From: Escherichia phage vB_EcoS_IME542
Length of the DNA stretch: 46,553 nt
Reading direction: 5' to 3' (one strand)
Sequence record: MK372342
Below the pieces are notes generated by a model. The model worked only from the letters and a program-made list of their open reading frames with translations. It was not told where the DNA came from and made no database searches. Made by a program: the position numbers and the translations under genes. Of the stretch, positions 4,774 through 32,888 are shown one piece after another (position 1 is the stretch's first letter; each line of letters begins with the position of its first letter).

Positions 4774-5189
4774 AAATCACAGATAAAGAAGATTACATTG
4801 AGTTTTACCCTGGTGCTGTAAAGTCATGCCCAAAGGAGGACGACGAACAGATCTTTTGCTCTGATTGGGTTAAGTATCATTACCCTCAGATTGTTTACTG
4901 GCACACAGTTAATGAAGGGATGAAATCAATTGGGTCAGCAAGGAAGGATGCAGCTAAAGGGCTCCTTAAGGGCGTATCAGACTGCTTATTCCTGATACCT
5001 GAATCACTTCGCGGAAAGTACCCTTTCGGAGCCATAGAGCTAAAGAGGGCTGGCAAAACCCAGGCTAGCACAGTCAGCGACGAACAAAAGTCTTTCCTTA
5101 AAAGCGTAAGAGAATCAGGTGGTTTCTCCGCTGTAGCCTATGGGCGCGAAGGTTTTCTTGCAGCATTCAAAGAAATGATTTCAAAATAG
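4770..5189 (+). CDS. VRR-NUC / PD-(D/E)XK-like nuclease
   Basis: D-x(n)-E-L-K arrangement (DCLFL...GAIELKRAGK); 139 aa; stop TAG lies inside the TAGCA box. Confidence 0.5.
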   Translation: MKITDKEDYIEFYPGAVKSCPKEDDEQIFCSDWVKYHYPQIVYWHTVNEGMKSIGSARKDAAKGLLKGVSDCLFLIPESLRGKYPFGAIELKRAGKTQASTVSDEQKSFLKSVRESGGFSAVAYGREGFLAAFKEMISK

Positions 5190-6301: not shown

Positions 6302-6383
6302 GAGCACTAACACTAGTAGCATTAACACCACTGTTTAGCTTTATTATCTTATACTTTATCGTAATGAATTAAGGAACTTAAAA

Positions 6384-7514
6384 ATGGCAACTGCAAAAAT
6401 AACCAACGAACAGCTTCGTGAAGAACTAGCGAGCGGCATGACTAACAAAGCAATAGCAGAGAAGTACGGTATGAATATTCGCAATGTTGAATTGCGTCGT
6501 AGTAAGCTAGCTAAGGCTGGAGATGGGCACGGTAGAGATGTAAGCAACCTTATTCCTCAAGGTTATGCAGTTAAGGGTGTATCAAGTCTTATTGGTGCTG
6601 ATGGTGAGATTAAGCAGCAGTGGGTTAAGTCTGACATCGACAAAGAGAAGCAAGAAGAGATGATGTTTCAGGCTATTGAAGCGCTTACTGATGAATTGCC
6701 GCGCGAGAAGCCTAGAGCATTAAGAGTTGGTTTGTGGGAAGACACTTTAAGTCTTTATCCTGTTTTTGATATGCACATTGGAGCAATGGCGCACCATGCA
6801 GAATGCGGGGAGAATTACAGTACTGAAATCGCAGAGCGTGTCCTTAATGATTATTTTGATTACGCTGTTGCTAAGGCTCCTTGTTCTAAGAAAGCAGTAT
6901 TGCTGATTGGTGGCGACTTCCTCCACTCAGATGGATTGGAAGCTGTTACGCCTACTAGTCATCATGTGCTGGACCAGGATAGCCGATACCATAAGCTTGT
7001 TTACGTAGCGGTTCGAGCGACTCGGCGAGCAATTAGCCGGATGCTTGATAAGCATAAAGAAGTTGAAGTTCAGATTATTCCAGGTAACCACGACCTTTCG
7101 GGTATGATTTGGTTGCGTGCAGCAATGGCGGCATTCTATATGGATGAGCCAAGGGTAAATGTTGATGCTTCACCTGCTGCGTTGCACGTAACTCAGTTTG
7201 GCAAGACGCTTCTTGGATACTGTCATGGTCATGAGCTTCGCAAGCCAGATACTCGCTTATCAACTTTGGCACGTGACCACCGCAAGGCGTTTGGTGAATC
7301 AGAATATGTTTATACCCATTCGGGCCATTATCACCATCAAACGATTACAGAAGGTAACTTGGGTATTGATGAGTCTCATGGTCAGCTTGGTGCGAAAGAT
7401 GCTTACAGCGCAAACGGTGGTTATCGCTCTTATCGCCAGGCGTCTGTAATAATCTACAGCCCTAAATTCGGCGAGATTGGTCGATTCACTTGTCGCCCAG
7501 AAATGTTTAGCTAA
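6384..7514 (+). CDS. calcineurin-like metallophosphoesterase with N-terminal HTH-like domain
   Basis: Motifs DMHIG, GGDFLHSDG, IPGNHDL, GHYHH; N-terminal MTNKAIAEKYGMNIRNVELRRSKL. Confidence 0.6.
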   Translation: MATAKITNEQLREELASGMTNKAIAEKYGMNIRNVELRRSKLAKAGDGHGRDVSNLIPQGYAVKGVSSLIGADGEIKQQWVKSDIDKEKQEEMMFQAIEALTDELPREKPRALRVGLWEDTLSLYPVFDMHIGAMAHHAECGENYSTEIAERVLNDYFDYAVAKAPCSKKAVLLIGGDFLHSDGLEAVTPTSHHVLDQDSRYHKLVYVAVRATRRAISRMLDKHKEVEVQIIPGNHDLSGMIWLRAAMAAFYMDEPRVNVDASPAALHVTQFGKTLLGYCHGHELRKPDTRLSTLARDHRKAFGESEYVYTHSGHYHHQTITEGNLGIDESHGQLGAKDAYSANGGYRSYRQASVIIYSPKFGEIGRFTCRPEMFS

Positions 7515-18676: not shown

Positions 18677-20251
18677 ATGACTGATGTTTTAGTTTGGGAG
18701 GAACTATCCCAATCAGAGAAACAGGCGATTAAGCTACTATCCACCCACAACTTCGAAACATTCCTTCGTGTGTGGTTCAGCATCACGCAAGGGCAGAAGT
18801 ATATAATGAACTGGCATCATAGATACCTATGCAGGATTGTTGATGAGATTATTAGCGGAGAGCGAAAGGATACAATCATAAATGTATCACCTGGCGCCGG
18901 AAAAACCGAAATCACGTCCATTCACTTTCCTGTTTATAGTTACCTCAAGCTACCAAAAGTTCGTAACCTTAGCCTGTCATTCTCTGATAGCCTGGTCAAG
19001 CGAAACTCTAAGCGAGTTAGGGACCTTATTAAATCAATGGAGTTCCAGGAGTTATTCCCAAGCAGGTTCGGTACGTGTAAGGATGACGAGATTCAGGTGC
19101 TTGATGAATCAGGAAAGGTTAGATTTGAGTCAATATCAAAGGCTATTGGAGGGCAAATAACCGGATCGAGAGGTGGTTACATTACGGATACTTATAGCGG
19201 CTGCCTGATGCTGGATGACGTTGATAAAGTTGATGACATGCTTAGCAAGGTGAGGCGTGAAGCAGTACATATGCTTCTAAAGAACACAATTCGCTCTCGT
19301 CGGGCAAGTTCGGTAAAAGGAAAAGCAACACCAATTATATCAATACAGCAGCGATTGCATGTGAACGATAGCTCGTGGTTCATGGCTGAATCTGGGGGTA
19401 TGGGTATAGATTTCGATGTTGTGAAGATTCCAGCGATAGTTACTGAGGATTACATCGACACGCTCCCTGACTGGCTAAAGCCACACTTCGAGGCTGATGT
19501 TCTATCTAGCGAGTACATCGAGCGAGATGGGGTTAAATACTACAGCTACTACCCACAGAAGGAATCCATTCATGATTTAATGGCAATGCAGGACGCGGAC
19601 CCATATACGTTCGCAAGCCAATATATGCAAAGCCCAATAGCTCTCGGTGGCAACATGATTGATACGGATTGGTTTATTCGTTACGGTGGGGATTTGCGAG
19701 CGCCATTAAAGTATGACTACCGATTCATCACTGCGGATACCGCGCTCACGACTAAGTCGTACAGTGACTTTAGCGTGTTCCAGTTGTGGGGCGTTAAGGA
19801 TAGAAAGCTATACCTTCTTGATATGGTTAGGGGTAAGTATGAGGCACCGGAACTCGAGGCAACACTATTGGACTTTGAGGCCAAAGCAAGAGCCACTAGT
19901 CGAGAGGAGGGGATACTTCGCAAGGTAATAATCGAGAAGAAAGCGTCAGGTATCGGCTTAATTCAATCTGCAAGTAGGGTTATGCGCACACCGATTGAGC
20001 CATTTATACCAGATACAGACAAGGTAACTCGCGTACTTTCTGCCATGCCTCAGATTAAGGCTGGCAATGTCATGATACCAGAGTCAGCGCCGTGGATGAG
20101 TGCACTCATCTCTGAGTTTTCAGCATTTACAGCAGACCTATCTCACCGCCATGATGACATTGTAGACACAACAACCATGGCAATAAACTGTGAGCTAAAT
20201 TTAGCCGACGATGCAAAACTAAGAATGCTGCGCCTTGCTGGGATTAAGTAG
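18677..20251 (+). CDS. terminase large subunit
   Basis: 524 aa; Walker A-like VSPGAGKTE, Walker B-like CLMLDDVDK; position before portal. Confidence 0.8.
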   Translation: MTDVLVWEELSQSEKQAIKLLSTHNFETFLRVWFSITQGQKYIMNWHHRYLCRIVDEIISGERKDTIINVSPGAGKTEITSIHFPVYSYLKLPKVRNLSLSFSDSLVKRNSKRVRDLIKSMEFQELFPSRFGTCKDDEIQVLDESGKVRFESISKAIGGQITGSRGGYITDTYSGCLMLDDVDKVDDMLSKVRREAVHMLLKNTIRSRRASSVKGKATPIISIQQRLHVNDSSWFMAESGGMGIDFDVVKIPAIVTEDYIDTLPDWLKPHFEADVLSSEYIERDGVKYYSYYPQKESIHDLMAMQDADPYTFASQYMQSPIALGGNMIDTDWFIRYGGDLRAPLKYDYRFITADTALTTKSYSDFSVFQLWGVKDRKLYLLDMVRGKYEAPELEATLLDFEAKARATSREEGILRKVIIEKKASGIGLIQSASRVMRTPIEPFIPDTDKVTRVLSAMPQIKAGNVMIPESAPWMSALISEFSAFTADLSHRHDDIVDTTTMAINCELNLADDAKLRMLRLAGIK

Positions 20252-20294
20252 CACTTTTTGTTAAAAGAATAACTCAAGGATGAGTTATCATAAT
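20249..20294 (+). promoter_or_regulatory. boxed promoter element in front of HNH gene (box TAGCActttttGTTA, hairpin ATAACTCA-agga-TGAGTTAT, CATAAT)
   Basis: Read directly; terminase stop TAG is the first three bases of the box. Confidence 0.5.
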
Positions 20295-20311
20295 AAAAAT
20301 AAGGAGGGAAA

Positions 20312-20836
20312 ATGATTAAGCGAACTGAAATTTACGATATAGCAATAGATTATCTTACATACGACGGTGTTAATGTTTTATGGAAGAAGAAGATAAAAAA
20401 GAGTAAGTACTACCCTGGAGATGTTGCTGGAACAATTGACTTTCAGGGGTATATTAGGGTTGCTCTATTCAGAAAACCAGTAATGGCGCACAGGTTCGCT
20501 TGGGAGTTTATTAATGGACCAATACCTGACGGTATGCAAGTTGACCATATAAACCACAACAGGTCCGATAATAGAATTGAGAACTTAAGGTTAGTCACCC
20601 ATCATGAGAACTCAGTAAACATAAAGATGCCGAAGAACAACACATCTGGTCACATTGGCGTTCACTACAATAAAAACAGGGGGACCTGGCAAGCTTCGAT
20701 AGGTGGGCGCAACAAAGAAACTCATGAGCATCTTGGGTGTTTTCACAACAGGGAGGACGCAATAAAGGCAAGAAAGATAGCTGAGATTAGGCTTGGTTAT
20801 CACAAAAACCATGGCAAGACAGATGATGAAATCTGA
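20312..20836 (+). CDS. HNH homing endonuclease, paralog 2 of 5 (between terminase and portal)
   Basis: VDHINHNRSDNRIENLRLVT HNH motif, C-terminal GYHKNHGK. Confidence 0.85.
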   Translation: MIKRTEIYDIAIDYLTYDGVNVLWKKKIKKSKYYPGDVAGTIDFQGYIRVALFRKPVMAHRFAWEFINGPIPDGMQVDHINHNRSDNRIENLRLVTHHENSVNIKMPKNNTSGHIGVHYNKNRGTWQASIGGRNKETHEHLGCFHNREDAIKARKIAEIRLGYHKNHGKTDDEI

Positions 20837-20880: not shown

Positions 20881-22137
20881 ATGGTAAAAACAGACAGCTA
20901 CGCCAATATCTTTCTTGGCGGCAGTGATGGTAGTGAGATTTACGGAAGTTTACAGAATCAAGCGCCTACAATTCTGGCTTCGCTTTATGCGGATAATGCA
21001 ATTGTGCGTCGAATTATTGACACAATCCCAGAGACGGCACTAGCAGCAGGATTCCACATTGACGGTATTGATGACGAACCCGCATTCTGGTCTCGCTGGG
21101 ACGATTTGGAGATGACGCAGAATATTAACGACGCTTGGTCGTGGGCCAGATTATTCGGCGGTTCTGCCATTGTAGCTATCGTTAAGGACAATAGAGCGCT
21201 AACAAGTCCGGTCAGAGAAGGTTCTGAGCTTGAAACTGTTCGCGTTTACGACCGTACGCAGGTAAAAGTACAGACTCGCGAAGAGAATCCGCGCAACGCA
21301 CGTTTCGGTAAGCCGCTAACCTATCGCATCACTACTAACGAGAGTGAAATGTTCTACGACGTACACTACAGCCGCATTCATATCATCGATGGTGAGCGAA
21401 TCCCTAACGTAATGCGTAGGCAGAATGATGGCTGGGGTCGTAGCGTTCTATCCAGTGACATTCTTGACTCAATCAAGGATTACACTAACTGCGAGCGACT
21501 CGCCACGCAATTACTTAGACGTAAACAGCAGGCAGTGTGGAAAGCGAAAGGGCTGGCTGAGTTATGTGATGATAGCGAGGGGTTTGGCGCTGCAAGATTA
21601 CGACTAGCGCAGGTTGACAATAATAGCGGCGTTGGTCAGGCAATTGGTATTGATGCCGAATCTGAAGAGTATAGCGTTCTCAACTCTGATATTGGCGGTA
21701 TTGATGCGTTCCTGGATAAGAAGTTTGACAGAATCGTTGCTCTGAGCGGCATTCATGAAATCATCCTGAAGAACAAGAACGTTGGTGGCTTATCATCCAG
21801 CCAGAATACGGCGCTTGAGACATTCCACAAGTTGATTGACCGTAAGCGCAACGCTGAACTACTGCCAATTCTTGAGTTCTTAATCCCGTTCATCGTAAAC
21901 GCAGAAGAATGGTCAGTTGAGTTTAACCCTCTAGCCCAGGAATCAAGCAAGGACAAGGCAGAAGTTTTGGAGAAGAACGTAAACAGCATCGCAGCACTAA
22001 TTGCATCTGGCGCTATGGATACCAATGAGGCACGTGATACACTACGAGCTATCGCACCAGAGATTAAGATTGGTGATAATGATATTCAGTTCGAGCAATC
22101 GGATTTAATTACAGAGACGGAGGTTGTAATTGCGTAA
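20881..22137 (+). CDS. portal protein (putative)
   Basis: 418 aa gene directly after terminase module; call is positional and by size. Confidence 0.6.
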   Translation: MVKTDSYANIFLGGSDGSEIYGSLQNQAPTILASLYADNAIVRRIIDTIPETALAAGFHIDGIDDEPAFWSRWDDLEMTQNINDAWSWARLFGGSAIVAIVKDNRALTSPVREGSELETVRVYDRTQVKVQTREENPRNARFGKPLTYRITTNESEMFYDVHYSRIHIIDGERIPNVMRRQNDGWGRSVLSSDILDSIKDYTNCERLATQLLRRKQQAVWKAKGLAELCDDSEGFGAARLRLAQVDNNSGVGQAIGIDAESEEYSVLNSDIGGIDAFLDKKFDRIVALSGIHEIILKNKNVGGLSSSQNTALETFHKLIDRKRNAELLPILEFLIPFIVNAEEWSVEFNPLAQESSKDKAEVLEKNVNSIAALIASGAMDTNEARDTLRAIAPEIKIGDNDIQFEQSDLITETEVVIA

Positions 22138-27342: not shown

Positions 27343-27772
27343 CAATGTTGGTGGCTTAGCCACCTTCACCAACTCTATTAATAATTGGATTTCAAGGGCT
27401 GATGATGGCTTCTCGGACATTGTTTCCGGAACTGTAATTAAAGCGGCAAATGCTATTGTTGATTTGTCTCCTGTAGATACTGGTAGGTTCAAAGCAAACT
27501 GGCAAATCACCGCCAACTCACCAGCCCAGCAATCATTAAATGATTATGACAAATCAGGAAATGAAACTAAGGCTTCATTAGCCAGGCAGGCGAGGGCAGT
27601 TGCTAACTCCAGTGCCACAAAAGTTATCTACATCACCAACCGCCTTGATTATGCGTCTGGCCTTGAATACGGGTCATCAAGGCAAGCGCCAGCGGGTGTT
27701 CTTGGCGTTGTTAATATCAGGCTTGGCAGGTATTTTGAAGAGGCAGTAGCTGAAGCTAGGAGTAAGCGATAA
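27335..27772 (+). CDS. tail completion / neck protein, HK97 gp10-like
   Basis: Motifs VDTGRFKANWQ and YASGLEYGSS; AGGAGG RBS before ATG 27335. Confidence 0.55.
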   Translation: MDNNVGGLATFTNSINNWISRADDGFSDIVSGTVIKAANAIVDLSPVDTGRFKANWQITANSPAQQSLNDYDKSGNETKASLARQARAVANSSATKVIYITNRLDYASGLEYGSSRQAPAGVLGVVNIRLGRYFEEAVAEARSKR

Positions 27773-28170
27773 TGCAATATGAATTATCTTTAGCATCAAG
27801 AAGGTTTGTAACTGATTTAGTAAAAACATTACCAGTCAGATATCCAATTGCTTACGAAAATGTAGCTTTCTCCCCACCAAATAATGGTGGAATGTGGTTC
27901 AAGTATGACTACACAGAAGCTGATACTGTAACATACGGGATAAGCAGAAAGTGTAAATATTATGTGGGCATGGTTCAAGTGTCAATCTTCTTCTCACCTG
28001 GAGATGGTATCGATACCGCAAGGAGAATTGCTAATCAATTGGCAGAATCAATGACTGATGGTACAATGCTTGACACAGGCTACATTTATGAGGGTGGAGT
28101 AGTTCACCCAGTAGTGAAGTCACAATCTGGCTGGTTCATTCCAGTTCGTTTCTATGTTCGTCTAGACTAA
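27772..28170 (+). CDS. putative tail terminator / minor tail protein
   Basis: Positional, upstream of major tail protein. Confidence 0.4.
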   Translation: MQYELSLASRRFVTDLVKTLPVRYPIAYENVAFSPPNNGGMWFKYDYTEADTVTYGISRKCKYYVGMVQVSIFFSPGDGIDTARRIANQLAESMTDGTMLDTGYIYEGGVVHPVVKSQSGWFIPVRFYVRLD

Positions 28171-28181
28171 AAGGAAAATAT

Positions 28182-28838
28182 ATGGCCCATCTTAGTAACG
28201 GCACTCAGGTCTTCGTAGAAGGCACCAGGGGAGCTACTATCGACGTAACCGCGATTTCCAACGCCGTTACTCCTGTTTTAACTTTATCCAGCGTTGAAGA
28301 TATTGCTCGCGGTGATTACCTTCTGTTTACCAGCTCAGCTTCAACCCTGCTGGCTGACAAGCAAGTTCGCGTTACCGCAGTATCTGGTTCAACTGTAACC
28401 GTTGAAGGTATTGATACCTCCAACACCACCAAGTTCCCGGCCGGTTTAACTGGCGAAGTGGTTAAGATTCTTAGCTGGTTTGAGGTTCCTTGTGTTCAGG
28501 ACGTATCCACTGACGGTGGTGAACAGCAGTTCGTTAACTTCCAGTGTTTGTCCGATGACCGTGAACAGCAGATTCCAACCTATAAGTCTGCTGTAACTAA
28601 CACCTACACGTTCGCGCACGAATACACCAACCCTGTATATCCGGTTCTGCGTAACTACGATGAGTCTGGCCAGGTTGTTGCGATTCGTCTGTTCGTACCT
28701 CGAGCTAGCGAAATGCGCTTGCAGTCCGGCACTATCGCTTTCAACGACACCCCTACCATTGGTGTTAACGAAATCGAAACGGTATCCATCGCAGTATCAA
28801 TTCGTGGTCGCCTGTCCTCTGTGGCAGCTGAAGTTTAA
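28182..28838 (+). CDS. major tail protein (putative)
   Basis: 218 aa; AAGGAAAA RBS; followed by strong terminator; precedes chaperone and tape measure genes. Confidence 0.6.
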   Translation: MAHLSNGTQVFVEGTRGATIDVTAISNAVTPVLTLSSVEDIARGDYLLFTSSASTLLADKQVRVTAVSGSTVTVEGIDTSNTTKFPAGLTGEVVKILSWFEVPCVQDVSTDGGEQQFVNFQCLSDDREQQIPTYKSAVTNTYTFAHEYTNPVYPVLRNYDESGQVVAIRLFVPRASEMRLQSGTIAFNDTPTIGVNEIETVSIAVSIRGRLSSVAAEV

Positions 28839-28844
28839 AACACA

Positions 28845-28868
28845 AACCCTCTTCGGAGGGTTTTTTAT
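28845..28868 (+). terminator. rho-independent terminator
   Basis: AACCCTC-ttcg-GAGGGTT followed by TTTTTT. Confidence 0.75.
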
Positions 28869-28872
28869 TGCA

Positions 28873-28933
28873 TAGCACTTTTTGCTAAAGCACTTATTCA
28901 GCTTTACTGTATAGTTATCTCATCGAAACGAAA
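28873..28933 (+). promoter_or_regulatory. boxed promoter element (perfect box TAGCActttttGCTA, hairpin AAAGC/GCTTT, TATAGT, CATCGAAACGAAA)
   Basis: Read directly. Confidence 0.55.
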
Positions 28934-28948
28934 TGAGAGATTAAAGAA

Positions 28949-29197
28949 ATGAATAACGTTAAAAACATCATCAAACTTGCTGCAGTTCTTGTTGCTTTTT
29001 ATGCAGTAGTTCAGATTGTTAACCCAACTGGTGAGGCTGATGCCAATAGCAAGGCAAACAAATATACCGTTGAGTTCGCTAAAGCTGAGCGAGCATGTCA
29101 GGAGCTTGTGGGTAGTAAAGTTGACCAAATCATGAAATATGGCAAAGAGGTCTGCAAGGACTCAGCTGCTAAGATTGCAAAAGAAAACACTAAGTAA
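28949..29197 (+). CDS. small secreted or membrane-anchored protein (possible moron)
   Basis: N-terminal hydrophobic IIKLAAVLVAFYAVVQIV; own boxed promoter; inserted between major tail and chaperone genes. Confidence 0.45.
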   Translation: MNNVKNIIKLAAVLVAFYAVVQIVNPTGEADANSKANKYTVEFAKAERACQELVGSKVDQIMKYGKEVCKDSAAKIAKENTK

Positions 29198-29236
29198 TAG
29201 AATACATACTCACAAACAATAAGAGGATTAACTAAG

Positions 29237-29551
29237 ATGGCTAAGTTCAAACTTTCACTGGCAGCACTCCCTGACTTCAAGCTTCCGGTAAAATTCAAGC
29301 TGGCTAACGACCAGGATGTAGAGGTTATCTTTACAGTCAAGCATAAGAAAACATCTGAGCTTCAGGAGCTTTTGCAGAAAGAAGACTTGAGTACTAAAGA
29401 ATTGATTATGGCAATCGCCTCTGATTGGGATTTGGAAGAAGAATACAACGAGGATAACGTTAATGAGTTCTCCGACCTGTTCCCAGCGTCAACGGTTGCA
29501 CTGACTACCGCTTACATGCAGGCACTGGCAGGCCAGCGGGTAAAAAACTAA
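29237..29551 (+). CDS. tail assembly chaperone (lambda gpG-like)
   Basis: 104 aa acidic protein immediately upstream of tape measure gene; ends at slippery heptamer. Confidence 0.6.
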   Translation: MAKFKLSLAALPDFKLPVKFKLANDQDVEVIFTVKHKKTSELQELLQKEDLSTKELIMAIASDWDLEEEYNEDNVNEFSDLFPASTVALTTAYMQALAGQRVKN

Positions 29552-29871
29552 AGAGGGCGGTGTATCTACAGTACCAGTCAGATCCAACTGATGCCGAACT
29601 GGAAGCTATTGGGATGCGCCGCTCTGATTACGAAGATGAAGAGCCTGAAGTTTTACACTTCGACGACAACATGATGAAGGCTTGGGACATTTATTGTTCA
29701 ATGGCCACGCAATGGAGGGTTGGAGCTAACGGAGCTACAGGGTTAGATTACAACGTGCTAAATTTCCTCTTTAGAGTGTATAATGTCTCAGAAGAAGAAT
29801 TGGTGCTCAGTGATTTACGCATCCTTGAAGCTAAGGCTCTCGAGATGATGGATAATCTGAGAAAAAAATAA
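29542..29871 (+). CDS. gpT-like extension reached by programmed -1 frameshift at A_AAA_AAC (29542..29548), giving a G-T fusion
   Basis: Downstream ORF is in the -1 frame and open from the heptamer; zero-frame stop TAA immediately follows the heptamer. Confidence 0.6.
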   Translation, partial: KKLKRAVYLQYQSDPTDAELEAIGMRRSDYEDEEPEVLHFDDNMMKAWDIYCSMATQWRVGANGATGLDYNVLNFLFRVYNVSEEELVLSDLRILEAKALEMMDNLRKK

Positions 29872-29906
29872 CCCGCTTCGGCGGGTTTTCTATTATGGAG
29901 GCTTAG

Positions 29907-32888
29907 ATGGCAACAAATGAATTAGCCGGAATCACACTAGCCGTAGACGTCTCGCAGGTAGACAGAGGTACACAGTCCCTGCGGAAGTTCAGGCAGGCAA
30001 ACCAGCAGGCCGCTTCCGGCATTAGTGAGTTCGTCAACGCCGAGCAGGTTGCAAAGAATCAAGCCAGAGACACAGCTCGCGCACTGGCTGAACGGCAATC
30101 ATCTTTGGCTAAATTGCAAACGGCTATTGACCCAACTGCGGCAAAGTTCCGTAAACTCCAGGAGGCTGCTGTAGGTCTTGATAAGGCTTTCGCGGCTGGA
30201 GTAGTTCCTGATGAGGAGTTTTTCCGCTTAGGTGAGGCGCTTGAAACGCAGAACGCAAAACTTGCTCGTTCACGTGCGGCACTAACTGAAGAGGGTAGAG
30301 CGGCGGCGCAAGCTGCAAAGGATAAGGCAAAGGCAAAGGCTGAAGCGGATAGATTCATTGCATCACTTGAGCGTCAGGCTCAGGCGGCAACATTGACGCG
30401 AGAGGAGTACCTAAAGTTACAAGCGGCCCAGCTTGGCGTAAGTTCTCAGGCGGCGCCTATTATTGACAGAATCGCCGATGCATCACGGAAGGCAAACACC
30501 CAGCTAATTGCTCAGAGCAAGGCCTTTCAACGCTCTGGCTTAAGCGCAGGTCAATACAAGGCTGCAATCTCTCAATTGCCAGCGCAGATTACAGATATTG
30601 GGACATCACTTGCTGGCGGCATTCCGATTTGGCTTATTGCAATTCAGCAAGGTGGACAAATTAAGGATGCATTTGGAGGTATTGGTAACACATTTAGTTT
30701 TGCGCTTGCTGCTTTAAACCCGTTCAACGTAGCAGTTGGGGTTCTCGGTGGCGCGCTTGTTGCTTTAGGCGTCGGTGCTGCGCAGGCTGAAAGTGAATTC
30801 AGGGCGTTAAACTCCGCCATTGCGTTCTCAAACAACTCCACAATCGCATCAATCTCGCAGGTTAGAGAGTTGGTTAGCTCTGTTTCTGATGCCACTGGTG
30901 CAACCAGAGGACTTGTGACTAGCATCGCAACAAGCCTTGTTGAGCAAGGAAACCTTACGCTAACGCAGATTGACAAGATTACTAAATCAACAGCCAGATG
31001 GGCTCAGTTGACAGGTAAGGATGCAAAGGAAATTACTGGTTACTATAACCAGATTGCGAGCGACCCAATTCAAGGACTTGCTGATTTAGACAAGAGGTTT
31101 AACTTCCTTACACAGGGGCAGTTAACAACAATTGAAAGATTGAGAGAGACTAGGGGTGAGGTTGAAGCCGTAACTGCTGCTATTGATATATTTAGCAAAT
31201 CACAAGAGGCAAACCTTAACGATATTGCAGCCCAGCTTACTCCTCTTGAATTGGCCTGGAATGACTTCAGGAAGTACATATCTGATGTATGGGATGCAAT
31301 TAGTCGCAGAACGGTTGGGGCGCTAAACCTGTTTGTTGACGTAATCGCCGGAACAATTGAGCAAATTAGGGTCTTCATCAACCAGGGTGATGTGCTGATT
31401 GGTGAATTCGTAATTAGCGCAACACAGGCACTGCAGAACATCCCCGGCCTTGATGGTGTTGGTGATGATGTTGTCAAGGGACAGCAGAAGATTATCGATG
31501 CCGCTAAGAAGCAAAACATTGAGCTAGAGAAGTCTATCAAGGAGCGCGATGCCAGAATCAGAGAAGGAGAACTTGGCTACGTTACTCGCAGAGAAAATCA
31601 GAATACCAATGAGCAGTCAGGCACGGATGAGGAGTTTGCAAAAAGGAAGAAAGCGCTTCAGGATGAACTTGATGCGATCAAGAAGAGCAGGAAAGAAGAA
31701 AATGGTAGGGTTAAAGAGCAAAGAGACCTTACAATTGGTTACGAATCTGGCGTACTTGCACTACAGGCACAACTCAAGGTGCTTCAGGAAAACAGGGATA
31801 TTGGCGCAGTAATAAGCAATGAGCGCAAGCAGTATCTTCAGGAGGTTGCAAAATTCCAGATTCTTGAGCAAAGGCAGCGTGATGGCTCAATAAAAAAAGA
31901 GCAAGCAAGACTTATTCTCGAGAAAGATAAAGTTCTGGAACTAGCAAGGCAGAAAGCTGAACTTGGCGATCAGATTGTTTTGCAGGAAAGAGCTAATAAG
32001 TTAGCTGAGGATAACAGGAAGAAGATTCTTCAGATCAACAACGAAGCAAATAACATTGGTTTTGGCGCCGGATTATCATCTCGTGAGCAGCAGAGAGCCA
32101 GAGAGATTCAGTCGCTTCAGTCCAATCAGTTAAACAAAGGTGGCTCTGTAGATGACACTGATTTTCAGGCTTTACTCGAAGCAAGGCGTAATTTCTATGC
32201 TCAAGAGGATGCGCTACGTGAAAACTGGCTTGCTGGCGTGAATCAATCCTTTGCTAACTGGGCTGAAAGCGCTACAGATGCTTTCTCAATTGCCGGAAGT
32301 TTAACCACTAAGGTATTTGAAGGCATTACTGACCAGATTACTGACCTTGTAACCACTGGAGAAACAAACTTCAGGGAGTTTACTGTAAACATACTCAAGC
32401 AGATTGCAAGAATTGCAACTCAGCTTCTTATTGTTAAGGCTATCGAGTCTAGCTTAAGTAGCTTTGGTGGTACTGGTGGCGCGATTGGGTCTATCGCATC
32501 TGCGATTGGCGGTGGCTTTGCTAGCGGCGGTTACACTGGAGACGGTGGAAAATATCAACCAGCAGGCACTGTACATAAGGGGGAGTTTGTATTCACAAAA
32601 GAAGCAACAAGCAGGATTGGTGTTAAAAACCTTTACGCATTGATGAGAGGTTACGCAAATGGCGGTGTTGTAGGCGGGCCTTCGGGCTATGCAAATGGCG
32701 GCTTGGTTTCTGGTGGTGCAGATGTTAATGTTAGCGGAATAACCGTTAACGTTAATAGTGGGATTGGAAGCGACCCGGAACAGGCCAAGGCGCTGCAAAA
32801 TGGCGTTAAGGCAATTGTAGCAGAAGAGATTGCTCAGTCTTTCCAGCAGGGCGGCAGAGCATTTGCTTATTTGAGAGGTTTCAACTAA
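29907..32888 (+). CDS. tail tape measure protein
   Basis: 993 aa, long alpha-helical Ala/Gln/Glu-rich N-terminal half, Gly-rich C-terminus; position after G/GT. Confidence 0.85.
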   Translation: MATNELAGITLAVDVSQVDRGTQSLRKFRQANQQAASGISEFVNAEQVAKNQARDTARALAERQSSLAKLQTAIDPTAAKFRKLQEAAVGLDKAFAAGVVPDEEFFRLGEALETQNAKLARSRAALTEEGRAAAQAAKDKAKAKAEADRFIASLERQAQAATLTREEYLKLQAAQLGVSSQAAPIIDRIADASRKANTQLIAQSKAFQRSGLSAGQYKAAISQLPAQITDIGTSLAGGIPIWLIAIQQGGQIKDAFGGIGNTFSFALAALNPFNVAVGVLGGALVALGVGAAQAESEFRALNSAIAFSNNSTIASISQVRELVSSVSDATGATRGLVTSIATSLVEQGNLTLTQIDKITKSTARWAQLTGKDAKEITGYYNQIASDPIQGLADLDKRFNFLTQGQLTTIERLRETRGEVEAVTAAIDIFSKSQEANLNDIAAQLTPLELAWNDFRKYISDVWDAISRRTVGALNLFVDVIAGTIEQIRVFINQGDVLIGEFVISATQALQNIPGLDGVGDDVVKGQQKIIDAAKKQNIELEKSIKERDARIREGELGYVTRRENQNTNEQSGTDEEFAKRKKALQDELDAIKKSRKEENGRVKEQRDLTIGYESGVLALQAQLKVLQENRDIGAVISNERKQYLQEVAKFQILEQRQRDGSIKKEQARLILEKDKVLELARQKAELGDQIVLQERANKLAEDNRKKILQINNEANNIGFGAGLSSREQQRAREIQSLQSNQLNKGGSVDDTDFQALLEARRNFYAQEDALRENWLAGVNQSFANWAESATDAFSIAGSLTTKVFEGITDQITDLVTTGETNFREFTVNILKQIARIATQLLIVKAIESSLSSFGGTGGAIGSIASAIGGGFASGGYTGDGGKYQPAGTVHKGEFVFTKEATSRIGVKNLYALMRGYANGGVVGGPSGYANGGLVSGGADVNVSGITVNVNSGIGSDPEQAKALQNGVKAIVAEEIAQSFQQGGRAFAYLRGFN

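Follow-up and report, generated by a model that had tools for sequence, protein, structure and literature searches.

The DNA analysed here, referred to as the window, is the whole 46,553-nt sequence of Escherichia phage vB_EcoS_IME542 (record MK372342). Between the gene for its major tail (tube) protein and the gene for tail assembly chaperone G lies an open reading frame of 82 codons, ORF82, which begins with ATG and spans positions 28949-29197 on the + strand. An earlier note on this sequence had described an 82-aa ORF lodged between the terminator of the major tail gene and a gpG-like gene; the ORF, the terminator and the two flanking genes (PF08813 and PF08748) were all found. The terminator hairpin (28844-28863) has an 8-bp stem and a folding energy of -11.5 kcal/mol (z = -3.6; one of 200 shuffled sequences folds as well). 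A hairpin is present at this position, as a feature of the backbone, in 59 of 59 T1-like loci surveyed. On the downstream side, the slippery heptamer at the end of the G frame joins this frame to the DUF1799 frame by a -1 shift, and the description "gpG-like" is therefore correct. The 993-aa tape measure gene comes next after the DUF1799 frame, with another terminator (29870-29887) separating it from the unit made of ORF82, G and GT. A promoter scan reported a single sigma-70-like site hereabouts, which has its -35 hexamer inside the last codons of ORF82 and is also a promoter in the annotation of EC3a. Coordinates of all features are collected in Table 1.

Table 1. Features of the ORF82 locus and copies of the associated sequence motifs in the IME542 genome. 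Positions are those of the window.
Feature	Position	Strand	Remarks
Major tail (tube) protein gene, family backbone	28182..28838	+	PF08813, E = 2e-68; phrog_584
Intrinsic terminator of the major tail gene	28844..28869	+	stem AAACCCTC/GAGGGTTT, UUCG loop, T-run
Upstream motif ATAGCACTTTTTGCTAAAG of the module; left end of the cassette	28872..28890	+	19 nt; invariant in 6 Braunvirinae
-10-like hexamer TATAGT	28910..28915	+	19 nt downstream of the motif; spacer variable, hexamer conserved
Leader CATCGAAACGA	28921..28931	+	fixed 5-nt distance from the -10-like box
Shine-Dalgarno-like GAGAG	28935..28939	+	9 nt before the ATG
Predicted signal peptide, codons 1-32	28949..29044	+	n-region MNNVKNIIK, h-region LAAVLVAFYAVVQIV, c-region NPTGEADA
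Predicted mature 50-aa domain and stop codon	29045..29197	+	two predicted helices; Cys50 and Cys69 invariant
Sigma-70-like promoter of the chaperone gene, TTGCAA-N17-TAGAAT	29175..29203	+	promoter scan; marks the right end of the cassette
Tail assembly chaperone G	29237..29551	+	PF08748
-1 slippery heptamer A AAA AAC	29542-29548	+	end of the chaperone G frame; sequence read directly
DUF1799 frame (chaperone GT)	29560..29871	+	PF08809
Module copies, genome-wide	2459, 5186, 7514, 13286(-), 14938, 15672, 20248, 28872
Further leader-motif copies	11712(-), 12856(-), 40616(-)

A megablast search with positions 28100-30000 matched 91 phage records, among which IME253, phiA2-1 and ZL19 are the best matches, at about 95% identity. 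All annotated matches belong to the Drexlerviridae, subfamily Braunvirinae (genera Rtpvirus and Guelphvirus), and the top unannotated ones carry the name Veterinaerplatzvirus. Judged by its sequence, IME542 is a coliphage of this subfamily, Rtp-like and T1-like. The Drexlerviridae are virulent phages. The annotation of the 95% identical IME253 lists neither an integrase nor a CI-type repressor, and another relative, MSK, has been described as virulent (PMC8421802). Two records that bear other host names, "Campylobacter phage A110b" and "Pseudomonas phage PsgS01F", share 89-92% identity with these coliphages, and a truncated copy of ORF82 is found on a 46.7-kb contig filed as Nitratidesulfovibrio liaohensis. 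All three are probably T1-like phages that contaminated other projects.

ORF82 and its predicted product

The forward frame of ORF82 is open, over 82 to 89 codons, in all eight loci checked. Pairwise dN/dS values range between 0.03 and 0.3, with many synonymous changes. Since the frame stays open in relatives and dN/dS is this low, these comparisons indicate that ORF82 is a real gene under purifying selection. Its length is fixed at 82 codons among 37 distinct family sequences, in which both cysteines are invariant. A 74-aa ORF on the opposite strand (28904-29128) was discarded as a candidate: its frame is broken in several of the eight loci and is not conserved. The leader of ORF82 is unstructured (-1.4 kcal/mol, z = +1.1). 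The GC content of the gene, 40.2% against a genome mean of 43.6% (sd 4.1% in 249-nt windows), falls at the 20th percentile, and a foreign origin is not distinguishable by GC or GC3. Many records already carry the gene as a hypothetical annotation.

Rates of change differ between ORF82 and its neighbours. With flanks of similar synonymous distance as the reference, the mature domain (dN/dS about 0.2) evolves faster than the chaperone, dN being 0.144 versus 0.031 in the comparison of IME542 with locus L012, and 0.434 versus 0.033 in that with ACG-M12. Inside the gene, the two halves have equal dN/dS (0.25 and 0.21); the higher conservation of the N-terminal half comes with a proportionally lower dS, which led to the rejection of a special functional constraint on this segment. 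The pattern fits a 5' part homogenised by recombination, or of more recent shared ancestry.

Database searches returned one family, phrog_22925, listed as of unknown function, which ORF82 matches at all positions (1-82 of 82; E = 1.3e-55) and which the divergent alleles of ACG-M12 and AN_ECEAS match as well. Apart from this family and chance matches, nothing was found for ORF82 in Pfam, NCBIfam and PHROGs. A word-indexed search of 5.8 billion proteins yielded only 39 close phage relatives, all on contigs of about 49 kb or less, which is at most the size of a phage genome; an exhaustive profile search of 1.84 billion representatives found the family's own cluster, one spurious repeat match and no remote homologue. 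Homologues of ORF82 appear to be confined to these phages.

The N-terminal hydrophobic stretch claimed in the earlier reading is present. It extends from L10 to V24 (15 residues, mean Kyte-Doolittle value 2.55), behind the n-region lysines K5 and K9. Across 37 family members, the c-region has Ala at -1 in 36 sequences and A, T, S or V at -3 in 35, while Pro at -7 (P26), Gly at -5 (G28) and Asn at +1 are all invariant. The predicted N-terminus is a textbook Sec / signal peptidase I signal peptide, with cleavage expected after Ala32 (ADA/N). Published predictions exist for MSK, where MSK_000011 is one of only two genes positive with SignalP 4.1, and is positive with TMHMM too; MSK_000010 is the major tail protein and MSK_000014 the tape measure protein (PMC8421802). 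MSK_000011 is equated here with ORF82 because of this gene numbering and because the MSK ORF that follows the major tail gene is identical to ORF82 at 82 of 82 residues. The idea of a small secreted protein is supported both by the signal-peptide pattern in the 37 sequences and by these predictions for the identical MSK protein. We regard it as highly probable that ORF82 is an accessory cassette for an exported product.

Removal of the signal peptide would leave a basic product of 50 aa (5.55 kDa, pI 9.2). The AlphaFold2 model, a weak one (pLDDT 63, from a 15-sequence alignment), has helices at residues 2-24, 30-54 and 57-81, and a Foldseek comparison of it with the PDB gave generic helical matches, the best at E = 0.7. 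The invariant G55 and G65 flank a short middle segment, around which C50 and C69 are placed symmetrically; from this symmetry we infer that the mature product may be a helical hairpin stapled by a Cys50-Cys69 disulfide. Counting against this model, the two cysteines would not face each other in a simple hairpin. The first cysteine of ORF82 is residue 50, and the protein has no L-x-[GAS]-C lipobox.

The main rival to a cleaved and released product is one that keeps its N-terminus. ORF82 would then be a bitopic inner-membrane protein (N-in/C-out), acting as an injection blocker or as a regulator of lysis timing in the manner of an antiholin. The injection blockers meant are HK97 gp15 and T4 Imm; the antiholin T4 RI has a membrane segment at its N-terminus and a small helical domain in the periplasm. 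A hydrophobic core of only 15 residues, held between K9 and N25-P26, is short for a stable anchor, although the AlphaFold model draws residues 2-24 as a single helix and TMHMM also calls a transmembrane helix in the identical MSK protein (PMC8421802). Conservation in the family is highest over the N-terminal 28 residues, but it is matched by the lower dS noted above, and the small residues at -3 and -1, the Pro at -7 and the Gly at -5 are kept in 37 sequences as if cleavage were selected. As to an antiholin-like role, one copy of the module described below stands upstream of the small gene that precedes the holin, but ORF82 itself lies far from the lysis cassette. An uncleaved protein is, on balance, unlikely, and a cleaved, exported product is the reading retained here.

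The promoter-like module

According to the earlier note, ORF82 has a promoter of its own with perfect boxes. A promoter-like element is indeed found upstream of the gene, but it is a phage-specific module and not a perfect-box sigma-70 promoter. A sigma-70 consensus scan of 27500-30500 gave no site within 28864-28948, and the hexamers that come closest to the consensus, TTGCTA (28882-28887) and TATAGT (28910-28915), deviate from it and are separated by 22 bp; because of this spacing, the module is not a standard -35/-10 promoter. Its consensus reads ATAGCACTTTTTGYTAAAG-N19-TATAGT-N5-CATCGAAACGA, and the position at which the earlier reading let the feature begin, 28873, falls on it.

The module is repeated in the genome. 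With up to three mismatches, ATAGCACTTTTTGYTAAAG occurs eight times (0.06 copies expected), and the leader motif ten times (0.6 expected). All eight modules have the hexamer (T/C)AT(T/A/C)(A/G)T 18-20 nt after the motif, at 19 nt in six of the eight. Six modules also have CATCGAAACGA exactly 5 nt after the -10-like box; one of these six reads CATCGAAACTA. The copies elsewhere in IME542 precede the gene for a 664-aa helicase, small early ORFs, the small gene before the holin, an operon on the minus strand and an HNH gene (20312). ORF82 carries the same signal as the non-structural transcription units of the phage. Rtp has 11 copies of the motif, including one before rtp34, the gene that occupies the place of ORF82 in that phage (see below), and one before each of the two HNH genes interrupting its structural block.

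The HNH genes that interrupt the structural block each lie behind a module, at 20248-20836 in IME542 and at 6316-6864 and 21393-21979 in Rtp; in the cases examined, genes inserted into the late block carry the module. Throughout the module, TTGNNA and the -10 box are spaced by a non-canonical 22 bp. In several copies, the -10 box is enclosed by a variable inverted repeat, the end of which is the CAT of the leader (for instance TGAGTTG/CAACTCA at 5186). We infer that the module is a promoter of the early or middle class, with transcription predicted to start at A28922; a phage factor may be required for its activity, or it may serve as an operator. No description of the module was found in the papers searched, and literature searches on rtp34, on Drexlerviridae transcriptomes and on promoter descriptions produced nothing useful.

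The reverse complement of the motif was noticed in the Tempevirinae (L005, 2715-2745; also L034, L043 and L052), where it reads CTTTTAACAAAAAGTGCTAT and is located just upstream of the chaperone RBS. On the other strand, the motif has a TAGATT box at a distance of 19 nt and is directed into the major-tail terminator, which is bidirectional. This arrangement could correspond to a short antisense transcript or to a leader hairpin (CACTTTT/AAAAGTG).

A slot between the tube and chaperone genes

Fifty loci were fetched via the chaperone protein and combined with annotated records, and in each the interval between the stop codon of the major tail gene and the start of the chaperone gene was measured. 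The interval is 392-515 bp, and filled, in 13 of 13 sampled Braunvirinae loci; it is 68-151 bp, with no ORF, in 46 of 46 other T1-like loci (Rogunavirinae, Tempevirinae, Klebsiella phages and others). ORF82 is present in 80 phage records, as against 1156 records with a homologue of the major tail protein. When Braunvirinae records are defined by a major tail protein at least 80% identical, either ORF82 or rtp34 is present in about 85 of 87. The gene rtp34 encodes an unrelated lipoprotein of 128 aa and occupies the slot in Rtp, RobRod40, MM01 and AugustePiccard. It has the same terminator, module, leader and "ATGAA" start as ORF82, and its product, likewise predicted to be exported, also has two invariant cysteines besides that of its lipobox; this lipobox (LLAG/C), which would anchor the product to lipid, sets it apart. 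Its AlphaFold2 model (pLDDT 38) was unusable. The presence or absence of the gene in related phages, which the earlier note had proposed to check, bears out an insertion with respect to the family backbone: in every sampled locus outside the Braunvirinae the slot is empty, and in four relatives it holds an unrelated lipoprotein gene. IME253 carries ORF82, yet belongs to the same genus, Rtpvirus, as Rtp with its rtp34; the cargo has therefore been swapped between close relatives.

An alignment of six Braunvirinae delimits the exchangeable segment. The terminator, the 19-nt motif, the -10-like box, the leader, the RBS and the sequence "ATGAA" are conserved whatever the cargo, and similarity between the ORF82-type phages and Rtp or RobRod40 stops just past the start codon, at the end of "ATGAA". 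After the stop codon of ORF82 comes the sequence TAGAAT-ACATACTCACAAACA-AGAGGATTA, which aligns with the TATAAT box, leader and RBS found directly after the terminator in relatives with an empty slot. Because the backbone box and leader are retained after the stop, the inserted unit extends from the end of the terminator T-run to the ORF82 stop codon.

Two further observations were made on relatives. Between AN_ECEAS (locus L002, 2001-3367) and IME542 (28182-29551), the major tail protein is 96% identical, ORF82 57% and the chaperone 69%; this drop in identity therefore places a recombination breakpoint at or near the terminator and module, as at a mosaic junction. The early region of BEK12A, a member of the Tempevirinae, encodes a 144-aa lipoprotein that is 27% identical to the rtp34 product, with the cysteines kept; its gene is found after a helicase gene and a small hypothetical gene (locus L061, 2370-2875), behind the same module. 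The position of this gene hints that the cargo of the tail slot came from the early region.

The earlier note had called the insertion a moron, a term whose definition reportedly comes from Juhala et al. 2000. Such elements are recognised as extra DNA that has a promoter and a terminator of its own, deviates in GC content and is expressed from the prophage (PMC3594210). The label is apt as far as the DNA is extra, being absent in relatives, and a promoter is plausible; it does not extend to the GC content, which is normal, to the life style, the phage being virulent, or to a terminator, as the scan found none between the ORF82 stop at 29197 and the chaperone start at 29237 and the next one is that at 29870-29887. 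Since no terminator follows it, ORF82 is also the first gene of an ORF82-G-GT unit ending at the 29870 terminator, and it is not fully autonomous. What the sequence describes is a moron-like exchangeable cassette for exported proteins, not a strict moron.

The same continuity bears on a different reading of the module, in which positions 28872-28931 would be a restart promoter for the chaperone and tape-measure unit, and ORF82 a late passenger gene that might protect progeny from cell debris or modify the envelope before lysis. Besides the missing terminator at 29197-29237, it is in keeping with this reading that every T1-like relative has a -10-like box directly after the major-tail terminator, and that Rtp and RobRod40 lack the backbone box, their chaperone gene coming directly after rtp34. 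However, ORF82-type phages retain the backbone -10, leader and chaperone RBS, so the module was added and is not a replacement, and the genes behind its other copies are replication, small early and HNH genes rather than structural ones. A restart promoter is therefore improbable, and we rank it behind the uncleaved anchor.

A far weaker case can be made for a tail-assembly or virion protein, for instance an extra chaperone or a decoration protein. The gene sits inside the tail gene block and is present in nearly all Braunvirinae. The earlier note would have given up its reading for a gene conserved at this position in all relatives and known as a structural component of the virion; conservation does hold for the cargo within the Braunvirinae (about 85 of 87), but nothing suggests a virion component. 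Phage tails assemble in the cytoplasm, yet ORF82 has a predicted Sec signal peptide. It is missing from 46 of 46 sampled relatives whose tube, chaperone and tape-measure genes are homologous, an unrelated lipoprotein can take its place, and it has no tail-related match in Pfam or PHROG; nor is it among the named structural proteins of MSK, which, being gel-based, is weak evidence (PMC8421802). A structural role is very improbable. Finally, a chance ORF in a long intergenic leader, the region acting at the DNA or RNA level only, would agree with the shortness of the frame, its weak Shine-Dalgarno sequence and its want of homologues outside these phages, but is next to negligible given a dN/dS well under 1 with many synonymous changes, the 82 codons and two cysteines fixed in 37 sequences, an antisense frame that is not conserved and an Rfam scan of 28600-29500 that gave nothing meaningful.

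Predicted action in the infected cell

Altogether, the reading that we favour, with a probability of about 0.55, is that of a non-structural, exchangeable cassette whose product is exported and acts on the envelope. The cassette would consist of a copy of the repeated promoter-like module and the gene for an 82-aa preprotein, placed in the Braunvirinae after the major-tail terminator and before the chaperone gene's ancestral promoter and leader. The module would fire independently of the late tail transcript, probably alongside the early and middle genes that bear it. The preprotein would be exported by Sec and cut after Ala32, leaving in the periplasm a basic helical product of 50 aa, stapled by the Cys50-Cys69 disulfide, which would act on the envelope of the infected cell. 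The envelope is proposed as the site of action because both cargos of the slot are small, apparently exported proteins with conserved cysteine pairs. Near-universal retention in the Braunvirinae counts against an accessory role, and ORF82 could serve a routine step of the lytic cycle in these phages.

The closest functional analogues of ORF82 would be HK97 gp15, T4 Spackle and T4 RI. When a second phage comes in, T4 Spackle (Sp) blocks its tail lysozyme, and RI senses superinfection and delays lysis. Both are small, come from a virulent phage and combine an N-terminal segment for export or anchoring with a short helical domain in the periplasm; the analogy is a functional one only, as they have no detectable similarity to ORF82 in sequence (no PHROG or Pfam match) or fold (best Foldseek match at E = 0.7). 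HK97 gp15, reportedly a moron product (Juhala et al. 2000; Cumby et al. 2012), is similar to ORF82 in that its small, envelope-targeted gene was added in the tail operon near the chaperone genes and is absent from related phages. It belongs to the YebO family, to which ORF82 shows no sequence relation (no Pfam or NCBIfam match, nor any in the profile search of 1.84 billion representatives). Moreover, the gp15 gene lies between the chaperone and tape measure genes, is provided with a promoter and a terminator of its own and is expressed from the prophage, whereas ORF82 belongs to a virulent phage, lacks a terminator and is predicted to be secreted rather than inserted in the membrane. The gp15 protein blocks DNA entry and leaves the outer-membrane receptor untouched (PMC3594210).

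Another group of small phage proteins acts at the receptor. Rtp45, T5 Llp and T1 Cor resemble ORF82 in their very small size (about 6-7 kDa when mature) and in facing the periplasm; virulent siphophages make them to stop adsorption to infected cells and debris, and at least Rtp45 has an intramolecular disulfide (PMC13164509). These are lipoproteins encoded beside the receptor-binding protein, each matched to one receptor, whereas ORF82 has no lipobox, is located between the tube and chaperone genes, and occurs in the LptD users JeanPiccard and OzMSK as well as in the FepA user IME253. For these reasons, receptor masking of the Cor/Llp/Rtp45 kind is unlikely; the idea of a receptor-matched exclusion protein was rejected, ORF82 being found with two different receptors. 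The receptor-masking role is already filled by Rtp45 in these phages.

The likeness to gp15, Spackle and RI leads us to favour periplasmic exclusion or protection that is independent of the receptor. The likeliest role would be superinfection exclusion or another form of protection after adsorption, such as blocking the DNA entry of a second phage. We put this function forward tentatively, as less likely than not, by analogy solely in size, compartment and genome position. It is doubtful, though conceivable, that ORF82 founds a new class of factors, soluble, periplasmic and receptor-independent, which exclude other phages or block injection, are expressed early and travel with a portable gene-shuttling module. 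If this were true, recombination at the module would move genes for exported proteins, and HNH genes too, back and forth between the early region and the block of late structural genes. Tail operons that contain accessory genes for small envelope proteins are familiar, and such genes are a fairly ordinary kind of phage accessory gene; ORF82 is an uncharacterised addition to this known class of elements.

Laboratory and industrial cultures of E. coli are repeatedly contaminated by Rtp-like phages, which are also candidates for therapy. A small exported protein kept in about 80 sequenced isolates probably alters the envelope of infected cells, and how a co-infection between such phages ends may depend on it. 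The slot, together with its portable promoter-like module, could serve to place cargo genes in these phages.
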